The position numbers and the translations under genes were made by a program. Below the pieces are notes generated by a model, which saw nothing but the letters and a program-made list of their open reading frames with translations, ran no database searches and was not told the DNA's origin. From contig JAGORL010000003.1 in assembly GCA_018062825.1 (NCBI GenBank), forward strand, positions 72,333-136,332: a stretch of 64,000 nt of DNA, given 5' to 3'. Source of the DNA: Patescibacteria group bacterium. Lineage in GTDB: Bacteria; Patescibacteriota; Patescibacteriia; UBA9934. Below are positions 7,775 through 60,590 of the stretch, in pieces (within the stretch, counting starts at the first letter, position 1; each line of letters starts with the position of its first letter).

Positions 7775-7850
7775 AAGAGAAAACCACCCAGCTGACCCTG
7801 ACTCGACGTTCTCGAGACTTGGTCAACGGGTGGTTTTACGTTTGTAGCGC

Positions 7851-8144
7851 TTAGCGGGGCTTACAGCCCTGGCCGTGCGGACGATCACCCCCTTCGAAGG
7901 AGGTATTGATCTGCGGCGCGAGATGGCCCGCGCGCACCGCAGCGCGCTGCTCCGGCGTGGCCGCGTGGAAATCCTCGAGCGTTGGCTGTCCGCCATGGAA
8001 GAACGTGGCCGGGATCGTATCCTCAAGGTCATGCTGGTCGAGCTCGTGGATGATCTTGGTCGCGGGGTCTGCGGAAACATCGCGGCGAGGTGGTGGGGTG
8101 AAGCTGGACAAGATAGCCTCCAATTGGCCGCAAAATAGTAGCAA
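7851..8144. other. Short GC-rich fragment with antiparallel ORFs (87 aa on +, 97 aa on -); possible remnant of a foreign high-GC gene
   Basis: A ~300 bp stretch whose G+C is well above both flanks, with high-GC ORFs open on both strands. No start context is convincing for either frame. Confidence 0.35.
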
Positions 8145-8277
8145 AGGTTAGCGGAAATGTAAAGGATAGAGTAGGTCCACTTCGTCCCAGCGGACTACGT
8201 TAGGACTGGAGAGTAGTTAGTAGGGAGCAGGGTTAGGAGTGATGATTCTTTATTACTTTGTTACACTCAGGATATCT

Positions 8278-10607: not shown

Positions 10608-10798
10608 ATCAGTGGGTAAATACTACTTCCACCCCTAAAAAAAGTCAAACCCTGGCGGAATTAGGTGAGGTGCGGGGTATTGGAGTTAGGGAATAGAGTA
10701 TAGGGTGTGGGGTGCAGGCCCACTTCGTCCTAGCGGACAACGTTGGGGGCGGGGGGGAGCAGTGAGCGTGATTGACAATTTTCAAGGTGGTGAAAAAG

Positions 10799-10876
10799 TT
10801 ATCCCCATTCTGTGCACTCTTATCCCCAATGTGGACAACTTTTCGCTAATCTTTGTCACATTGTTTGTTGTGGATA
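10799..10876. promoter_or_regulatory. oriC element 1: cluster of DnaA boxes upstream of dnaA
   Basis: TTATCCCCA (twice), TGTGGACAA and TGTGGATAT within ~80 bp, followed by an AT-rich tract, directly upstream of dnaA and downstream of rpmH. Confidence 0.7.
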
Positions 10877-10954
10877 TTTTGACTATGATGGCAGCGTCGT
10901 CACGAACAAAGCAGCAGCCGCTTTTGCGGTCGCGCACACGTTGGAATATCGCCT

Positions 10955-12346: not shown

Positions 12347-12386
12347 TTCTCCCCAGGTGACTGTGGAAAAACTGCAGATATGTGTA

Positions 12387-12598
12387 CAGTGGATAGCTCG
12401 GGGATAAAGCAGTGGATGAGTGGATGGATAAGTATGGGGATGAGCGTGGGACGAACAAGGGACAAAGGCATGGGCTATGAAACAACTTTGTTTCATACAC
12501 AGGCGACTCCCGCGGTCTTCCCAAACTTCTCCACATCAGGGACAATGGAATCGCTCAATAGACAATGCTTGAAGTGGAGTTATCCATGTCATCCACAG
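12387..12598. promoter_or_regulatory. oriC element 2: DnaA-box-like cluster in the dnaA-dnaN spacer
   Basis: Repeated GTGGATAG, GTGGATGA, TGGATGGATAAG, TTATCCATG and CATCCACAG motifs in a 290-bp non-coding spacer. Confidence 0.55.
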
Positions 12599-12640
12599 AC
12601 TCACAGCTACTATCAGTTTAGTAAATAAATTTATCTCTCT

Positions 12641-13774
12641 GTGAAGATCTCCTGTACGAAAGAGAACTTGCACCAAGGTCTCGCAATCGTGAGTCATATA
12701 AGTGGTAAGAATGCTAACTTACCAATACTCAACAATGTTCTGTTAAAAGCGGATGTATCGGGATTGAAGCTTACGGCAACAAATCTTGATATGACGGTGT
12801 CGTGTCATGTTCGTGGCAAGGTTGAACAGCCAGGCGAATATACGGTTCCAGCTCGACTTATTGCGGATTACGTCAGTTTGCTTCCAGACGAGCGAATCGA
12901 TATTGATTTACTCGATAGTGCGATTGCGATTTCTTGTAAGTCATCAAAGACCAAAATGCATGGTCTTCCGGCGGGTGAGTTTCCACTTATTCCTCAGGTT
13001 CAGGGTGGAATCACTTTTTCTGTACCGGTTAAGGCGCTTGATGCTGCGCTTTCACAGACGCTTTTTTCCGTGGCAACAAACGAGGCACGCCAGGTGCTTA
13101 CAGGTGTTTATCTTTATTTTAATGGTGATGCTCGTACGGTGACGGTGGCTGCGACTGATAGTTATCGTTTAGGGGAGAAGGTTATTCCGCTTATTGGTGA
13201 GCAGCTTGGTGAGCGACGAGTTGTTGTTCCGGCTCGCACGCTTGGGGAGCTGCGTCGAGTTTTTAGCGTGCTTCGTGATAGTGTCGAGACTCCGGAAAAT
13301 GTTGATATCGAACTTACGGATAATCAAGTTGCGTTTCGATACGGTAACGTTGAATTATCTTCTCGGACAATCGATGGAGTTTATCCCGACTATCGTCAAA
13401 TTATCCCCAAGTTAGCCACAACTGAGGTGATTGTCCCCAGAAATGAGTTCATGCAGGCGGTGAAGCGCACATCGCTTTTTTCAAAGCAAGGGCTTTTTGA
13501 TGTGAAGCTCGACATGAAGCCGGACAGTAATGAAATCGTACTTTCTGCTAACGATGCTGGTCGTGGAGAACATACCGTAGCTGTCTCTGGTGATATGAAG
13601 GGGTCAGCTAATGCGGTAACGCTTAACTATCGGTATTTACTTGATGGCGTTAGTGCCATGACTTCTGAGAGTATCGTGGTTAAGATCATTGATTCTATGA
13701 ATCCATGTGTCGTTGTTCCACATGAGCAGAAGGATGAGCAGTATCTTTACATCGTGATGCCGATTCGGCAGTAA
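12641..13774 (+). CDS. dnaN: DNA polymerase III beta sliding clamp
   Basis: 377-aa three-domain clamp with typical N-terminus (MKISCTKENL...) located after dnaA. Confidence 0.9.
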   Translation: MKISCTKENLHQGLAIVSHISGKNANLPILNNVLLKADVSGLKLTATNLDMTVSCHVRGKVEQPGEYTVPARLIADYVSLLPDERIDIDLLDSAIAISCKSSKTKMHGLPAGEFPLIPQVQGGITFSVPVKALDAALSQTLFSVATNEARQVLTGVYLYFNGDARTVTVAATDSYRLGEKVIPLIGEQLGERRVVVPARTLGELRRVFSVLRDSVETPENVDIELTDNQVAFRYGNVELSSRTIDGVYPDYRQIIPKLATTEVIVPRNEFMQAVKRTSLFSKQGLFDVKLDMKPDSNEIVLSANDAGRGEHTVAVSGDMKGSANAVTLNYRYLLDGVSAMTSESIVVKIIDSMNPCVVVPHEQKDEQYLYIVMPIRQ

Positions 13775-32977: not shown

Positions 32978-33027
32978 GGTATAGAGAAGGGAGTAGGAAG
33001 TAGTTAGTAGGGGGGGGTAGTGCGAGG

Positions 33028-33082: not shown

Positions 33083-34477
33083 ACTATGCGCATGCGAAGA
33101 ATTTTTGGCGCCGTCCTTCTTGGCGCAACACTTGTCATGGTAGGTGCTGGCTGTAGTGGTGATAGTGCAAGTACGGCAAATACCACTAAGCCGGTAACGC
33201 TTACCTATTGGCGAGTATTTGATGATGAAGATGCATTTACTGAGATCATTTCTTCTTATCGAGTTTTGCATCCGAACGTAAAGATTGAGTATCGCAAACT
33301 CCGTGCAGAAGAATATGAGGAAGAGCTTTTGAAGGCGCTCGCAAAAGGTGAGGGGCCAGATATTTTTTCTGTACACAATTCACGTGTAGCTGAGTTCCAG
33401 GATCTTTTGCAGCCAATGCCGGCATCCGTACAGATTTCTACGCTTGAAGTTCAGGGATCGCTTCGTAAAGAGACGGTCTATGTACCAAAGACTGTTACGT
33501 TGTATACGCAAAAGCAATTGGAACAGCAATTTGTTGATGTTGTAGCTGAGGACGCGGTATTGCCGTATCAGCCTGATGAAGATACGCCTGCTACTGACCG
33601 TATTTACGGTTTGCCACTTTCGGTAGACACAATGGCGCTTTATTACAATCAGGATCTTCTTAACGCGGCTGGCATTGCCGAGCCACCAACTACTTGGGAT
33701 GCGTTTCAAGAGGCAGTGATTAAGCTTACAAAGATTGATGCCAATGGTCAGGTTACGCAGTCCGGTGCCGCGCTTGGTACATCTGAGAACGTTGAGCGAT
33801 CAAGTGATATTTTGGCACTTCTCATGATGCAGAATGGCACGCAGATGACTGATGATCGGGGGCGGGTTGCCTTTCAGACTATTCCGGTAGGAACGGAGCG
33901 CGGTGTTTTTCCAGCGCTTGATGCTACGCGTTTCTATACTGATTTTGCCAACCCAGCTAAAGAAACATATACCTGGAACGATAGCTTCCCGAATTCGTTT
34001 GATGCTTTTACTCGTGGTCAAACGGCTTTTTTCCTTGGTTATAGTTATCATGCGCCACTTATTACCGCGGCTAATCCGAAATTACGTTTTGAAGTTAGTG
34101 CGGCGCCACAGATTTCCGGTGGTCGACAGGTTAATTATGCTAACTACTGGATAGAAGGCGTTTCTAAGAATACAGATGCGAGTAACTATGCTTGGGATTT
34201 TCTCGCGTACGCTGCTAAGGCTGAGAATGTAGCTTCATATCTTGAGGAGGCCCAAAAACCTACGGCGCTTAGGAGCGTGATCAATGCGCAGCTTGAGGAT
34301 GATTTTCTAGGTGTATTTGCTTCCCAGATTCTTCTTGCAGATTCTTGGTATCACGGAAAGGATGCGCTTGCAGCTGAACAGGCGTTCTATGATCTTATTG
34401 ATGCGATTTTGAACGGCTCAGCTGAACCGGAAGATGAGGTAGAGTCAGCGGCTCGTATTATTTCGCAGACGTATTAG
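33083..34477 (+). CDS. ABC transporter extracellular solute-binding lipoprotein (family 1, sugar-type)
   Basis: Lipoprotein signal peptide (LVMVGAGCSG) followed by an SBP_bac_1-like fold. Start placed at a Met preceding the signal peptide. Confidence 0.7.
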   Translation, partial: TMRMRRIFGAVLLGATLVMVGAGCSGDSASTANTTKPVTLTYWRVFDDEDAFTEIISSYRVLHPNVKIEYRKLRAEEYEEELLKALAKGEGPDIFSVHNSRVAEFQDLLQPMPASVQISTLEVQGSLRKETVYVPKTVTLYTQKQLEQQFVDVVAEDAVLPYQPDEDTPATDRIYGLPLSVDTMALYYNQDLLNAAGIAEPPTTWDAFQEAVIKLTKIDANGQVTQSGAALGTSENVERSSDILALLMMQNGTQMTDDRGRVAFQTIPVGTERGVFPALDATRFYTDFANPAKETYTWNDSFPNSFDAFTRGQTAFFLGYSYHAPLITAANPKLRFEVSAAPQISGGRQVNYANYWIEGVSKNTDASNYAWDFLAYAAKAENVASYLEEAQKPTALRSVINAQLEDDFLGVFASQILLADSWYHGKDALAAEQAFYDLIDAILNGSAEPEDEVESAARIISQTY

Positions 34478-34501
34478 GAAGTAGTTAGTAGGGAGTATTT
34501 G

Positions 34502-37254: not shown

Positions 37255-37305
37255 GTTTTATAAATAGCGAACGCCCCAGTTCTCCGAAGAGAATGGGGCG
37301 TGAGA

Positions 37306-37911
37306 TCACCGAGTGGGACACCGGCCGAGATTGAACTCGGAGCGGCGGCTCCACAGAGTGCTGTCCTTCATGATGTGGGCGAGGCTGTTGCAGCTCCCGA
37401 CCTTGTTGCCGGCAACCGTGGCGGGGCCAGCAGCGGTAACGGCCATGGAGTTCAGTGCGAACACTGCGATCCCGTTGTATACGCTGATGGTCTTAGAGCT
37501 TTCCGGCACAGCGCCACCGTAGGTGGAACCGGACAGTTGGACGCGCGGCGTGGACAGGATGGTCCAGGCCGAGCGACCGCTCGGAATGCAACTCACGAAT
37601 TCGGTGGGTGACACCCAGAGGCCGATGGCGATCCGGGTTTCGATCCCGCTTTGTTCGGTGAGGGTCATGACGGCGCTCGGATTTCCCGATCCGTCGAGGT
37701 TCGGGCGCAGACACCACTGGGTGGTGTTGCGCACCTCGAGACACAGCGGGTTGCTGTCGCAGCCCGCGGGCGGCGAGAGCACCCACTCGTTCTGGACGGT
37801 GGGGATGAACAACACCTGCGCGTTGTTCGTGCTTCCGGCACCCGCCAGGGCCGCCGTGGGGGCGAAGAAGGCGAGGACGAGGGTGAACAACGCGATGAGG
37901 GTGCGGATCAT
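37306..37911 (-). CDS. Secreted Cys-containing protein A of the GC-rich island
   Basis: Signal peptide MIRTLIALFTLVLAFFAPTAALA, six Cys, GC3-rich codons, and a GGAGG Shine-Dalgarno before the ATG at 37911. The track ORF extends further to 37962. Confidence 0.6.
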   Translation of the reverse strand: MIRTLIALFTLVLAFFAPTAALAGAGSTNNAQVLFIPTVQNEWVLSPPAGCDSNPLCLEVRNTTQWCLRPNLDGSGNPSAVMTLTEQSGIETRIAIGLWVSPTEFVSCIPSGRSAWTILSTPRVQLSGSTYGGAVPESSKTISVYNGIAVFALNSMAVTAAGPATVAGNKVGSCNSLAHIMKDSTLWSRRSEFNLGRCPTR

Positions 37912-38006
37912 GGGAACCTCCGAACTTGAAAGGGCGAGTGAACTCTGAGGCCTCGGCATCATGATTGATGCTGGTGCCAGTGGAGTGCCCTTCTTGCGAA
38001 AGGCGA

Positions 38007-38090
38007 GTTAGCTAGTTGCGAACGTCCAGGCTCCGTAGAGCATGATGGCTGCGATGGCGAAGAAGAAGATTGTGACGATTGACGCGGTCA
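38007..38090 (-). CDS. 27-aa single-TM hydrophobic peptide (MTASIVTIFFFAIAAIMLYGAWTFATS)
   Basis: Hand-found ORF between island genes B and A on the same strand, preceded by an AAGGAA Shine-Dalgarno 5 nt upstream. Below the ORF-track size cutoff. Confidence 0.35.
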
Positions 38091-38193
38091 TGTGGTTCCT
38101 TAGGTGTGTAACCCGCAGACAGCTCATCTTGAGTGATGAACGGTCAGTAGGGTGCCCGTTCGGACTTCTTGGAAGAAGCCGAACGGGACGTAG

Positions 38194-38826
38194 TCACTCT
38201 GCGAGCGCGTCGTTCGCGGCGCGGAGCGAGACCACTTCGCTCTCGAGCTCGCGGACGCGGGCGTCCGTGGCGGAGGAGGTGGTGGTCGACGGCGCGGGCG
38301 AGGCGGGCGGCGGGGTGATCTGGCCCATCGAGGCGGACTGGAACGCGAGCGTTCCCATCTGGCCGAGACCCGGCATGGCCATGCCGGGCATGAACATGCC
38401 GCCGTTGCCAACCGAGATGGCGGCGTACGGGGCGGCCTGGCCGGTGGCGATGAGGTCGCCGTCGGCGTAGGTCGCGACGTTCGCTTCGATGCCCGCGAGG
38501 GAGACGTCACGGCGGGTGCCGGCGTCGACCTGGCGCGTCGCGGCGTCGATGCAGCCGACGCCTTGCCCCATCATCTCGATGGTGTTCTTGGCGCTGACGT
38601 GCTCGGCGTCGATCGTGACACCGCACGCGTTGACCGACACCGTGGGGCGTCCGGTCAGCTGCGTGTTGCTCGTGGCGTCGACTCGGCCGCTGGTCTGCGT
38701 GCGGGGTGCAGCGGGGCTGCGCTCGGCGACCGTTGCGGTCGGGCGGCTGGTCGCGTTCGGGTTGCCACCGGCGAGGGCCGGGGTGGCGAAGGCGACGAGG
38801 GCGGCGAGGGTGATGAAGCGGATCAT
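38194..38826 (-). CDS. Secreted low-complexity protein B of the GC-rich island
   Basis: Signal peptide MIRFITLAALVAFATPALAGG, a Pro/Ala/Thr-rich region, and a C-terminal coiled-coil-like tail. GAGG Shine-Dalgarno before the ATG at 38826. Confidence 0.55.
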   Translation of the reverse strand: MIRFITLAALVAFATPALAGGNPNATSRPTATVAERSPAAPRTQTSGRVDATSNTQLTGRPTVSVNACGVTIDAEHVSAKNTIEMMGQGVGCIDAATRQVDAGTRRDVSLAGIEANVATYADGDLIATGQAAPYAAISVGNGGMFMPGMAMPGLGQMGTLAFQSASMGQITPPPASPAPSTTTSSATDARVRELESEVVSLRAANDALAE

Positions 38827-39203
38827 GGATGACCTCACAGTGGAAGGAGCGGATACTTTACCTGGCAGGTATTAGCCAGTTCAAGTAACACATATTTATA
38901 GCACAAATTTTGGAAAAAGTCAAGGGGGTTAGTGAGATAATTTGGCTAATATTAGAAGAAAATGTGAAATCGGAGATCGGGGATCGGAGATGGATTGAAA
39001 TGCTTTTTTGTGATTGCTACACGGAGATTTCTCAACTCGGCATTCAGACTCGTTCGGGATCGCAAGACGATACATGTAATTGTTTGTTGAGACCTTCCCG
39101 AACGAAAGTTAGGGATCTTGGTTATGTGTTGGCTCTTGGCACGAAGGCTAGACCCCTCACTTGCGTTCGGGGAAGTTTTCAATACTTTTAATAATGGCAT
39201 TTT

Positions 39204-39221
39204 ATAGCTAATATTAGCTAT
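39204..39221. promoter_or_regulatory. 18-bp perfect palindrome ATAGCTAATATTAGCTAT (candidate operator) upstream of the island gene C promoter
   Basis: Perfect dyad. Related sites occur at 14521-14537 (TTGGCTAATATTAGCTA), 38941-38955 (half-site) and 6411-6430, all in divergent promoter regions. Confidence 0.5.
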
Positions 39222-39239
39222 TTTTGTTTACTTATCCCA

Positions 39240-39268
39240 TTGACAAAACGTCGATTTTATGCTACTAT
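39240..39268 (+). promoter_or_regulatory. Sigma70-type promoter TTGACA-17-TACTAT for island gene C
   Basis: Consensus -35 and near-consensus -10 with a 17-nt spacer, ~85 nt upstream of the ATG at 39354. The hexamers match the rRNA promoter at 57222-57250. Confidence 0.6.
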
Positions 39269-39353
39269 ATAGTGTTCGCAAGTGCGGCACATCGCCCATT
39301 TCGCGAAAGCAACTTCACAATCTGCAGTCACAAAGTGACAATCGGAGATCGCC

Positions 39354-41384
39354 ATGGCCACGGAGTCTACTGGAGACAATCGTCGTATCGTTGAGCAGAC
39401 GCTTGGCGAGATCGGAGAAGAGTGGCTCGAGACGATCGGTAAGGGGATCAATCCCATGCCGTTCCTCGCGACGCCCCACTTCTGGGGTCCGCCGGCGCGA
39501 GCAATCGCGAAGCGCGTGGCTAAGCATCCGAACACGATCCTGGGCGGCTTTTCTTTTCTGGGCGCTGTTGCGCAGGAAAAGTTGCCCTTCGGTCGGGATG
39601 TCAACCTCATCGTCGCCACGATCTTGCGCGGTATCCCGCGTCTCGCTGAGAATTCGTTGGCGGCACATGGTGTGACCGCTGACAACATCGAACAGAAGAT
39701 TGTCGAGTGGGCTGTGCAGCTCGCGAAGGAGACCCCCATGACGACGACCATCGAGTCGAAGCCGGAGGCTCCCGCGACGCCCTCGGCACCCGCGTTCGAG
39801 CTCACGCAGGAGCAGGGCGATGCCCTCGGGCTTCTGCACCGCATCCTTGAGGTTCGCCTCACGGATGCGTTCAACTTCCCGACCGAGCCGCGGCGGTACC
39901 AGGCGCTGTTGCGCCGGCTGTCGGCGAGCCCGATCGCGGTTCAGTTCCTCCCGAAGCTCAAGAAGAAGGAGATCGATGCCACCCTCGCGCACTTGCGCAC
40001 CCTCCAGACCTGGACGGCGCCCAACGTGAGCGAGGACCGGCCGACCGACGAGATGGCCGCGCAGGCGCGGATCGAGGTGGAGAAGGTGCTCTGGCGCTAC
40101 ATGCGCTTCGAGGCCGCCCTCTTCGCCCATGATCACCACCTGAACGGCGCCTATTCGATCGTCATCGGGGCGCTCGATCGTCTCGATGCGAACGTGACGG
40201 ACGAACAGCGTCGCCAGTTCCGGGAGTTTTGGGAGCGTCAGCTCCAGAACCTCTCGGAGGCCGGCATCCCCGGCATGACCCGTGACTTCGCCGAGAACTC
40301 GGCGCGAGTCATCCGGGAACAGGCGGAGCGGCTGTTCGGCTTCACGGTCGACGTCGGCCGACAGGTGTTCGAGTTTGCGGCCTGGGCGTTTGTGGGGGTC
40401 AATAGCCTCCTCATCGCCGGGATCGCGCTCTGCCTCATGGGTATCACCATGGTGGCCGAGCAGACGTTCGTGGCTCCGGCGCTTCTCGGACTCCTCTTCG
40501 TGATCCAGGTCGGAATCGCTGGGCGTCTCCTCACGAGCTCTCTGAGCACGGCGTGGAAGGCGGCCATCGTCATCGCGGCGGCAGCGCTCCTCGTGTTCCA
40601 GGTGTCGTTCGTGTCTGCGCTTCTTGCGCACCCGAGCGTTCTCCTCTTCCAGGTGGGGATCTGCCTCATGTGGATCTGGTACTTCTTCGTCGGACTGTTC
40701 GACGCGGTCGTCAACGGCTTTGCGGCCTTGACGCGCGGAGAGCGGTTCGGCCGGGATGCCGGAACGATCACGAGGGCGTGGATCGCGACGCGCAATGCCA
40801 TCATCGGCCGCACGGTCGAGGGGCAGGGCACGGCGGATGTGCCGGTACAGTTCCGGTGGTTCCGCAATTGGTCGCCGACCGTCGTCATCATCGTCTCCCT
40901 CGTGGGTGGTGTTGGTAGCGCGACGCAGGCGTTCTGGTTCGGTGCTTCGGGCGGCTTGTTCTCGGCGCTCATGTTGCTTGGCTCCGGCTGGCTCACGGGC
41001 GGTTCCGCGATCATGTACACCCGTGGCAATCGGCAGTTGACGGCAGCGGACAAGGATAACTTCTGGTCGCTCGACTTGCGGCAGAAGTACGCCAAGCGGG
41101 CGTTCCTCGTTCCCGGTGTCCTCGGCCAGGTGATGCTCGTCGTTGGCCTTGCGACCCTCTTCGTTCCTTGGTTCAAGGGCGAGGCTCTCGGTCAGCAGGT
41201 CACGGTGGCGCAGCACGTAGTGGTCGAGCCCGCAGCTAAGCAGGAAGCGACGCCCGTCATCTCGACGAGCGACGCGGCCTGCGAGAAGGTCGAGCGAATG
41301 CTCCAGGCGTCTCCGGACGTTTGCACGCTCTCGCCCGGCCTCAAGAGCTGCGCCACTGCCAAGCGGTGCGGACTGCTGAAGTAA
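39354..41384 (+). CDS. 676-aa polytopic membrane protein of the GC-rich island (soluble N-terminal ~330 aa plus ~8 TM helices)
   Basis: Strong GC3 codon bias (ctc/gcg/acg/atc/gag) unlike the flanks, GGAGA Shine-Dalgarno, and no family motif recognised. The antisense 690-aa ORF is a high-GC artefact. Confidence 0.65.
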   Translation: MATESTGDNRRIVEQTLGEIGEEWLETIGKGINPMPFLATPHFWGPPARAIAKRVAKHPNTILGGFSFLGAVAQEKLPFGRDVNLIVATILRGIPRLAENSLAAHGVTADNIEQKIVEWAVQLAKETPMTTTIESKPEAPATPSAPAFELTQEQGDALGLLHRILEVRLTDAFNFPTEPRRYQALLRRLSASPIAVQFLPKLKKKEIDATLAHLRTLQTWTAPNVSEDRPTDEMAAQARIEVEKVLWRYMRFEAALFAHDHHLNGAYSIVIGALDRLDANVTDEQRRQFREFWERQLQNLSEAGIPGMTRDFAENSARVIREQAERLFGFTVDVGRQVFEFAAWAFVGVNSLLIAGIALCLMGITMVAEQTFVAPALLGLLFVIQVGIAGRLLTSSLSTAWKAAIVIAAAALLVFQVSFVSALLAHPSVLLFQVGICLMWIWYFFVGLFDAVVNGFAALTRGERFGRDAGTITRAWIATRNAIIGRTVEGQGTADVPVQFRWFRNWSPTVVIIVSLVGGVGSATQAFWFGASGGLFSALMLLGSGWLTGGSAIMYTRGNRQLTAADKDNFWSLDLRQKYAKRAFLVPGVLGQVMLVVGLATLFVPWFKGEALGQQVTVAQHVVVEPAAKQEATPVISTSDAACEKVERMLQASPDVCTLSPGLKSCATAKRCGLLK

Positions 41385-41388
41385 CAAA

Positions 41389-41419
41389 TACCTCCTTGCC
41401 CACGCGGGGCGAGGAGGTA
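41389..41419 (+). terminator. Terminator-like hairpin after gene C
   Basis: TACCTCCTTGCCCACGCGGGGCGAGGAGGTA, GC-rich with a weak U-tract. Confidence 0.4.
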
Positions 41420-41506
41420 CTCATCCCCTGATTCGAGCACTCGCTCGGGTCGGGGGATTCTCTTTTTAGGGAGTAGGAAGTAGTTAGTAGAAAGTAGGCC
41501 AGGTCA

Positions 41507-57250: not shown

Positions 57251-57408
57251 TCCGCCGCACTGTTCGTGAACAAAAGTTCACTTCAGAAGAGCTTTTTGGA
57301 CGAAAGTCCAGCGCGCCCTTCTGAACGTTTACAACTAAATATTCTACGAAGAAAAAGCAAACGCACTGATATCATGACCAAAAGGTCATGCGTACTCAGT
57401 GAATGGAG

Positions 57409-60418
<3,010 letters not shown>

Positions 60419-60480
60419 TCCATTCACTGAGTGCGTTAAATCGCACGCGTTTGCTAAACGAATAAAAAAACATTTCATTG

Positions 60481-60590
60481 TCTTGGTGGCATTTCCAGCG
60501 GGGACACACCCGTTCCCTTCCCGAACACGGAAGTTAAGCCCGTTTGGGCCGATGGTAGCCAAGTGTGGCGAGAGTAGGTGGCCGCCAGGA
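60481..60590 (+). rRNA. rrf: 5S ribosomal RNA
   Basis: TCTTGGTGGC..CCGAACACGGAAGTTAAGCCCG..GATGGTAGC..GAGAGTAGGTGGCCGCCAGGA; ends pair. Confidence 0.9.

Follow-up and report, generated by a model that had tools for sequence, protein, structure and literature searches.

Organisation of the tig-nfo spacer

The window, i.e. the whole 64-kb stretch of DNA that was analysed, contains between tig and nfo a short GC-rich stretch, which is occupied by a small gene on the minus strand. The neighbours of this gene code for trigger factor, endonuclease IV, a NUDIX protein and a PF1765-like protein. Its elements are listed below; L001 and L092 are contigs from another strain of the same species and from a sister species, respectively.

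7851-8111, minus strand: small protein-coding gene, equal to the GC-rich stretch (ORF list; NCBI protein P0001; frame open in L001 and L092)
8111 to 7851, minus strand: TTG start at 8111, 86 codons, TAA stop at 7853-7851 (sequence)
8163-8135, minus strand: predicted sigma-70-like promoter, TTTACA, 17 nt, TGc-TACTAT (extended -10) (promoter scan)
8121-8117, minus strand: Shine-Dalgarno sequence GGAGG, 5 nt upstream of the TTG (read from the sequence)
7780-7837, both strands: bidirectional intrinsic-terminator hairpin (AAAACCACCC ... GGGTGGTTTT), common to tig (plus) and the small gene (minus)

The minus-strand frame is annotated at NCBI as hypothetical protein KBC55_03395 (86 aa, identical to P0001), from a Patescibacteria metagenome-assembled genome (197.6-kb contig). 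In all the Logan contigs examined the gene was missed by the gene callers.

The predicted promoter is the sole promoter-like site between 7600 and 8400, where shuffled sequences give 0.4. Its region is 93–97% identical between strains, unlike the coding sequence, and the -10 of L001 reads TATTAT. The GGAGG is kept in both L001 and L092. The terminator hairpin, a 10-nt perfect inverted repeat, begins 13 nt past the stop of the small gene. Its free energy is -30.3 kcal/mol on the plus strand (z -4.1) and -36.7 kcal/mol on the minus strand (z -5.5), where it is followed by UUUUCUCUUUU. It is almost unchanged in the L001 strain; the sister species retains the 10-nt stem ends but differs at several positions in the stem interior. 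The kept flanks of the gene are TAGCGGGGCTTACAGCCCTGGC and CCTCCAATTGGCCGCAAAATA. Read in this way, the GC-rich stretch would be a complete minus-strand transcription unit, from predicted promoter to terminator, and not a fragment.

Base composition

The initial annotation had described a jump in base composition between tig and nfo, and sliding-window G+C confirms it. The G+C is about 65% at 7850-8110 versus 48.6% for the whole window. By interval it is 0.625 (7850-8150) and 0.649 (7840-8110), with a peak of 0.80 in 30-nt windows. Windows of 150 nt give 0.63–0.69 between 7800 and 8100 versus 0.42–0.54 in tig and nfo. Windows of 300 nt average 0.486 over the 64 kb (sd 0.052), and only the tig-nfo stretch and a region at 37.26-41.5 kb exceed 0.60. 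The boundaries are abrupt and coincide with the ends of the coding sequence.

The small gene lies outside the range of the host genes. The 51 host ORFs of at least 120 aa have a G+C of 0.475 (sd 0.024) and a GC3 of 0.441 (sd 0.045, max 0.55), versus 0.65–0.66 and 0.75–0.76 for the small gene, which is thus about 17 points GC-richer than its host; GC1 is raised as well as GC3. No native gene of equal G+C was found within the window, the maximum among the 51 host ORFs being 0.53. The high-GC codon structure noticed earlier is supported, and the stretch is a sharp compositional outlier: its codon-position profile (0.68/0.48/0.72) is of the high-GC coding sequence type, which one frame on each strand fits equally. 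The description of the stretch as open in antiparallel frames was also correct, since four ORFs of 81–97 aa occupy four of its six frames.

The second GC-rich region of the window is a large island at 37260-41500, with a G+C of 0.56–0.72 and a GC3 of up to 0.93. Six tandem T4SS_pilin (PF18895) paralogues immediately precede it, and independent metagenome assemblies from Logan and NCBI contain it as well. It holds three orphan ORFs:

37306-37962, minus strand: orphan ORF, no Pfam match
38194-38838, minus strand: orphan ORF, no Pfam match
39354-41384, plus strand: orphan ORF, no Pfam match

Further along, 57404-60590 holds 5S and 23S rRNA genes, the 23S gene measuring 3021 nt and carrying several insertions when compared with the bacterial model; a 16S rRNA gene was not found in any part of the 64 kb.

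Other assemblies and additional alleles

Logan contigs of other sequencing runs encode Tig and Nfo proteins identical to those of the window. Two of these contigs, L002 (SRR11088486) and L083 (SRR11088367), are 99.97–100% identical to the window over tig, the small gene and nfo. Both GC junctions are reproduced, so that three independent assemblies agree, that of the window included.

A second strain of the species (tig dS 0.05) is represented by contigs L001 and L084 (SRR26424693); its flanks are 98.3% identical to the window over 5.5 and 3.5 kb. Between the two strains tig shows 14 differences in 1290 nt and nfo three in 852 nt, all at third positions. Contigs L092 and L093 (SRR17347193), which were reached via a 90%-cluster member of Tig, represent a sister species (tig 83.5% identical in nucleotides, dS 1.4, dN 0.031). 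The sister species holds a third allele at the same site and with the same high G+C, which shows that the small stretch is not a recent insertion.

The mis-join of reads that the initial annotation wished to exclude is not found, the assemblies of SRR11088486 and SRR11088367 being identical to the window across both junctions. The abrupt change of composition could nevertheless recall an assembly or binning artefact, i.e. a high-GC read or contig joined into a Patescibacteria contig, and the Logan contigs of two samples do break inside the spacer. These contigs however end in its repeat-rich part upstream of nfo and not at the GC boundaries, and two further lineages carry divergent alleles joined to the same tig terminator. 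With these independent assemblies in agreement, we give an artefact practically no credence.

Two observations concern the contig ends. Those of L001 and L084 overlap across the CCACTTCGTCC repeat described below, and the G/A/T-rich part that precedes nfo consists, in the sister species (L093 1-30), of four tandem copies of GGTTAGG.

Coding capacity and selection

In both L001 and L092 the minus-strand frame starts at the same TTG, behind the same ribosome-binding site, and stays open up to the same C-terminus, and every other frame is interrupted. The indels between the window and L001 alleles total 36 nt, a multiple of three, and the changes between strains follow the codon periodicity. Sixteen residues conserved between these two alleles carry synonymous third-position changes. 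Conservation of a frame by chance is nevertheless fairly common in GC-rich DNA; it was estimated at about 0.08 for L001 alone.

Across allele comparisons dN/dS is 0.23–0.54 in the minus-strand frame, although with three alleles these selection statistics are weak. Between the window and L001 it is 0.45 overall and 0.38 when only the N-terminal block, which has no gaps, is counted; the central part of this alignment is gapped and was placed with the help of the protein frame. Other frames tested on this pair give 1.08–1.86, and the contrast between synonymous and non-synonymous changes has a Fisher p of 0.013. Between the window and L092, over 86 codons, the amino acid identity is 72%, dS 0.78, dN 0.18 and dN/dS 0.23. 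Because of the low ratios in this frame for both pairs (0.45 and 0.23), purifying selection appears to act on the small gene, and in the three alleles on the minus-strand frame only. The small protein evolves 6–9 times faster than Tig (dN 0.031) or Nfo (dN 0.019).

The plus-strand ORF at 7875-8138 (87 aa) was considered and rejected: it contains stops in L001 and L092, its in-register antisense dN/dS is 1.49, and the protein search returned no relatives of it. The earlier description of the stretch as a fragment of a gene is also abandoned, as it has the parts of a complete gene, a frame open in three divergent alleles and dN/dS below 1.

A GC-rich block between a terminator and the next gene might instead be a structured non-coding RNA or a regulatory RNA, as is often the case for GC-rich spacers when the genome has a moderate G+C. 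However, no Rfam family is found inside the element even at E <= 10, and its folding is no better than that of shuffled sequences on the two strands (z +0.78 and +0.25). The codon-periodic changes and the indels in multiples of three also go against an RNA, which we consider extremely improbable.

Properties of the small protein and search for homologues

The small protein is rich in Pro, Ala, Thr, Asp, Gly, Arg and His. It shows no signal peptide and no hydrophobic or transmembrane segment, and its sequence is that of a putative soluble protein. The three alleles share an N-terminal motif, FTPP-x2-R-x4-DPAT-x-II-x2-LDQ-x-DL, and a C-terminal motif, GG-x-RPH-x-QG-x-KPR. From the single sequence AlphaFold2 gives a pLDDT of 57, with two short helices, the remainder unstructured, and no confident fold.

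About 15 billion predicted proteins were searched for homologues. A query of the 5.8-billion-cluster protein index, made with the single sequence and with a two-allele profile, returned only the gene itself. HMMER, run exhaustively against 1.84 billion cluster representatives, returned the gene itself and one match that we judge spurious, P0002 (433 aa, E = 8.7e-4), a low-complexity repeat protein. Pfam, NCBIfam, PHROGs and PADLOC contain no family for the small protein (a PHROG match at E = 0.19 is noise), and a profile search of the PDB sequences found no relative. No homologue was detected in phage and plasmid records by tblastn or in IMG/VR by a protein-profile scan. The other parts of the window, the large GC island included, have no similarity to the small gene by blastn or tblastn.

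A protein-profile scan of the JGI metagenomes gave one match, L085, and a profile search of the six-frame ORFs of the 90-odd fetched loci found only the known alleles and L085. In this high-GC soil contig (JGI Ga0210400_10213132), at 229-282, an alternative frame of the dnaK sequence coding for the conserved DnaK motif LSKEEIDRMVKDA reads FEGGDRPHGQGC, which matches exactly 12 C-terminal residues of the small protein; the DNA agrees at 28 of 35 positions, with mismatches at third positions only. The match is probably due to chance and to the search bias of a pattern-directed scan. The stretch was rejected as a dnaK (HSP70) fragment: the DNA similarity to the L085 dnaK ends at 35 nt, and no HSP70 match was obtained in Pfam at E <= 1 with four of the six frames of the GC-rich stretch.

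Alternatively, the stretch could be a functionless piece of a foreign high-GC gene that stayed behind in the spacer after horizontal transfer. Its composition and high-GC codon profile agree with such an origin, several frames are open as in random GC-rich DNA, and the 12-aa, 35-nt match to an alternative frame at the dnaK 3' end of L085 might be a trace of one. But this match stops at 35 nt and was picked by a pattern-directed scan without HSP70 support, and no longer homologue appeared in any database searched. A remnant would also be expected neither to have a predicted promoter, ribosome-binding site and terminator of its own, nor to keep one frame in three alleles at dN/dS 0.23–0.54 while the other frames break. 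We therefore hold a fragment to be very unlikely. No foreign donor of the kind that had been postulated was found, the protein and DNA collections searched giving only self matches. Judged from these searches, the small protein appears to be a new family and a lineage-restricted orphan.

Divergence and mosaicism of the alleles

The difference between the window and L001 is concentrated in one tract:

7879-8118: hyperdivergent tract, window versus L001, 0.13–0.73 identity per 30 nt, coinciding with the coding sequence

Outside this tract the identity is 0.93–1.0 per 30 nt, and the tract of L001 is 36 nt shorter than that of the window. The divergence begins at the start codon and stops about nine codons short of the stop codon, and the promoter and terminator flanks are 93–100% identical between the strains. 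In the small gene these same-species alleles have a protein identity of 49%, with dS 0.87 and dN 0.46. The dS of the flanks of the same two strains, 0.016–0.05, is far below the value of about 0.9 for the small gene. The two same-species alleles (49% amino acid identity) also diverge more than the window does from the sister species (72%).

The relationship between the alleles changes along the gene. In the first 32 codons L001 and L092 agree (83% amino acid identity); in the rest of the gene the window and L092 agree (80%), and the L001 segment is divergent and shorter. A maximum-contrast test places an intragenic breakpoint at coding nucleotide 66 (about codon 22), where the site patterns change from 4/16 on the left to 45/10 on the right (p = 1.5e-6 without correction for the approximately 65 cuts tested). 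At the level of these sequences the alleles appear mosaic and intragenic recombination is demonstrated.

Sharp divergence inside the coding sequence together with conserved flanks is the pattern of allele exchange by homologous recombination: alleles would be swapped via the kept terminator and promoter flanks. Selection may maintain the allele diversity; the pairwise dN/dS of the small gene, below 1, gives no sign of positive selection. The variable region was rejected as the target of a diversity-generating retroelement, given differences at all four bases and indels of 3–8 codons; a template copy for such variation was not found either, there being no second copy of the region within the window.

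Repeats upstream of nfo

Two repeats accompany the small gene on its nfo side:

8209-8227, plus strand: C-free 19-nt motif GAGAGTAGTTAGTAGGGAG (sequence scan)
8209-8227, 32996-33014, 34477-34495 and 41476-41494, plus strand: four copies of the C-free motif GGAAGTAGTTAGTAGGGAG, all in spacers
8173-8204 (plus strand) and 10716-10747: 32-nt repeat AGGYCCACTTCGTCCYAGCGGACWACGTTRGG, copies 88% identical, containing CCACTTCGTCC

Both the G/A/T-only motif at 8209-8227 and the CCACTTCGTCC repeat (at 8177-8187, inside the 32-nt repeat) are present where they had been reported. The C-free 19-mer is found four times in the window versus zero expected by chance. The link to GC islands which had been proposed for these motifs stands only in part. 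Two of the four C-free copies (8209 and 41476) adjoin GC-rich DNA; the other two (32996 and 34477) do not, and are situated just past the stop codons of ordinary host genes, before terminator hairpins. The second copy of the 32-nt repeat is not in the GC island but in the rpmH-dnaA spacer, and both copies are embedded in G/A/T-rich sequence, upstream of nfo and of dnaA. With copies in spacers without GC-rich DNA, the C-free motif and the CCACTTCGTCC repeat were rejected as island boundaries. They are host spacer repeats, not signatures of GC insertions.

The rpmH-dnaA spacer also contains four DnaA-box-like 9-mers at 10790-10880 (TTATCCCCA twice, TTGTCCACA and ATATCCACA), and further DnaA-like boxes are found near 12360-12600 and 13400-13420. 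This spacer is probably the replication origin region.

The tig-nfo spacer in relatives

A Tig search gave 80 related species loci, from Uhrbacteria, Magasanikbacteria and other Patescibacteria, with a best Tig identity of 65%. In about 40 of the 80, and in the four Logan strains, nfo is downstream of tig in the same orientation. Where nfo was found the gap between the two genes is 30–2122 nt, and in many cases 30–170 nt; relative to these many short gaps the GC-rich stretch is indeed extra DNA, as first described. A homologue of the small gene is absent from all 80 related tig loci.

The spacer of relatives, among them Uhrbacteria and Magasanikbacteria, carries either no gene at all or other inserts: ORF6N (E = 5e-33), HicA (E = 1.7e-14) with a HicB-like partner, membrane proteins and unrelated orphan genes. 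The HicA toxin and its partner are at 6038-6575 of L080, and an ORF6N-domain protein is at 5398-5925 of L011, with similar-looking ORFs in L009 and L018. In L045 and L046 (Magasanikbacteria, about 40% G+C) unrelated small inserts reach a G+C of 0.61–0.62. The tig-nfo site was found to contain no integrase or other mobility gene, as would be expected if its content turns over by homologous recombination in the flanks.

Origin and possible role of the small gene

Taken together, the locus is probably a real, independently transcribed minus-strand gene (8111 to 7851), a lineage-restricted orphan at a variable spacer, which would be both selected and recombining. What had looked like a foreign fragment can thus be re-read as a small gene of the opposite strand that is intact, lineage-specific and under selection. 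In the collections searched this gene appears only in the candidate-phyla-radiation bacterium of the window and in the sister species.

The high G+C of the gene is persistent. In all three alleles GC3 is 0.72–0.75 versus 0.45–0.49 in the hosts, notwithstanding a dS of 0.8–1.4, and a crude relaxation estimate would place GC3 at about 0.56–0.62 given the synonymous divergence observed. Such persistence fits poorly with a single ancient acquisition whose composition then drifted toward that of the host. A GC3 above the relaxation estimate implies that the gene was originally much GC-richer, that it is re-imported from a high-GC pool, or that its G+C is actively maintained, e.g. by GC-biased gene conversion. 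A foreign origin is plausible, and it is composition that speaks for it, since no donor or homologue was found. The gene may have been acquired horizontally, from a high-GC source, by the common ancestor of the two species, or its alleles may have been re-imported repeatedly from such a pool.

The gene could also be real but native, whether it originated in this lineage or had belonged to it all along, its high G+C being made locally, e.g. by GC-biased gene conversion at a locus prone to recombination or by selection on the sequence. Its presence at the same site in two species, the GC3 kept in all alleles through large synonymous divergence, the intragenic recombination and the failure of every collection searched to provide a donor are all compatible with this. 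The excess is however very large (GC3 0.75 versus 0.44, with GC1 raised too), its abrupt boundaries match the coding sequence, the gene is missing from the other 80 related tig loci, and import of high-GC DNA is suggested by the other, larger GC-rich island of the window with its orphan ORFs. On balance we think a native origin unlikely.

As for the role of this small gene, the protein may take part in an interaction under diversifying or frequency-dependent selection, such as a conflict with phages, mobile elements or host cells. Its hypervariability and the cargo found at the site in relatives suggest, with low confidence, a small soluble factor in an antagonistic interaction. That it represents a new small-protein family whose alleles are kept diverse across species by frequency-dependent selection, with a G+C kept up by re-import from a high-GC host bacterium or mobile element or by GC-biased gene conversion at a recombination hotspot, we consider unlikely; in that case an immunity, anti-defence or partner-recognition factor of an episymbiotic candidate-phyla-radiation bacterium is possible. 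If the protein does act in phage or host interactions, it would provide a handle on conflict systems in uncultured bacteria of this radiation.

Comparison with known systems

Since the same core genes flank variable content, the tig-nfo spacer can be classed, as a variable site, with the hotspots of Oliveira et al. 2017 (Nat Commun 8:841, PMC5635113), although our comparison spans species-level metagenome-assembled genomes and is not a formal pangenome of one species. As in the horizontal-transfer hotspots of these authors, a core pair, here tig and nfo, borders the variable content; unlike them, the site holds in our case a single 86-codon gene and not a multi-gene island.

The small gene also resembles the atypical ORFans and genomic islets, being short, of narrow lineage and of atypical G+C and GC3. 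As a rule, orphan genes and genes of recent acquisition are AT-richer than the host. The small gene, in contrast, is GC-richer, and it remains so in the sister species as well. With type II toxin-antitoxin and defence cargo it shares its location, as a small gene at the site which in L080 holds HicA and its HicB-like partner. It was rejected as such a module, being a single gene without partner and without match in Pfam, NCBIfam, PADLOC or PHROGs. A ribosomal peptide or pheromone precursor locus was rejected likewise, its neighbours including no modification, protease or export genes.

Deeply divergent, recombining alleles within a species are known from pherotype peptides (agrD, comC), immunity genes and surface antigens. 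The small gene differs from loci of the agrD/comC type in that no processing, export, toxin or receptor genes are adjacent to it and its product has no signal peptide or membrane segment. It is like them in its conserved ends and variable middle, in its mosaic alleles, in flanks homogenised up to the coding edges, and in a divergence that is greater within the species than between species.
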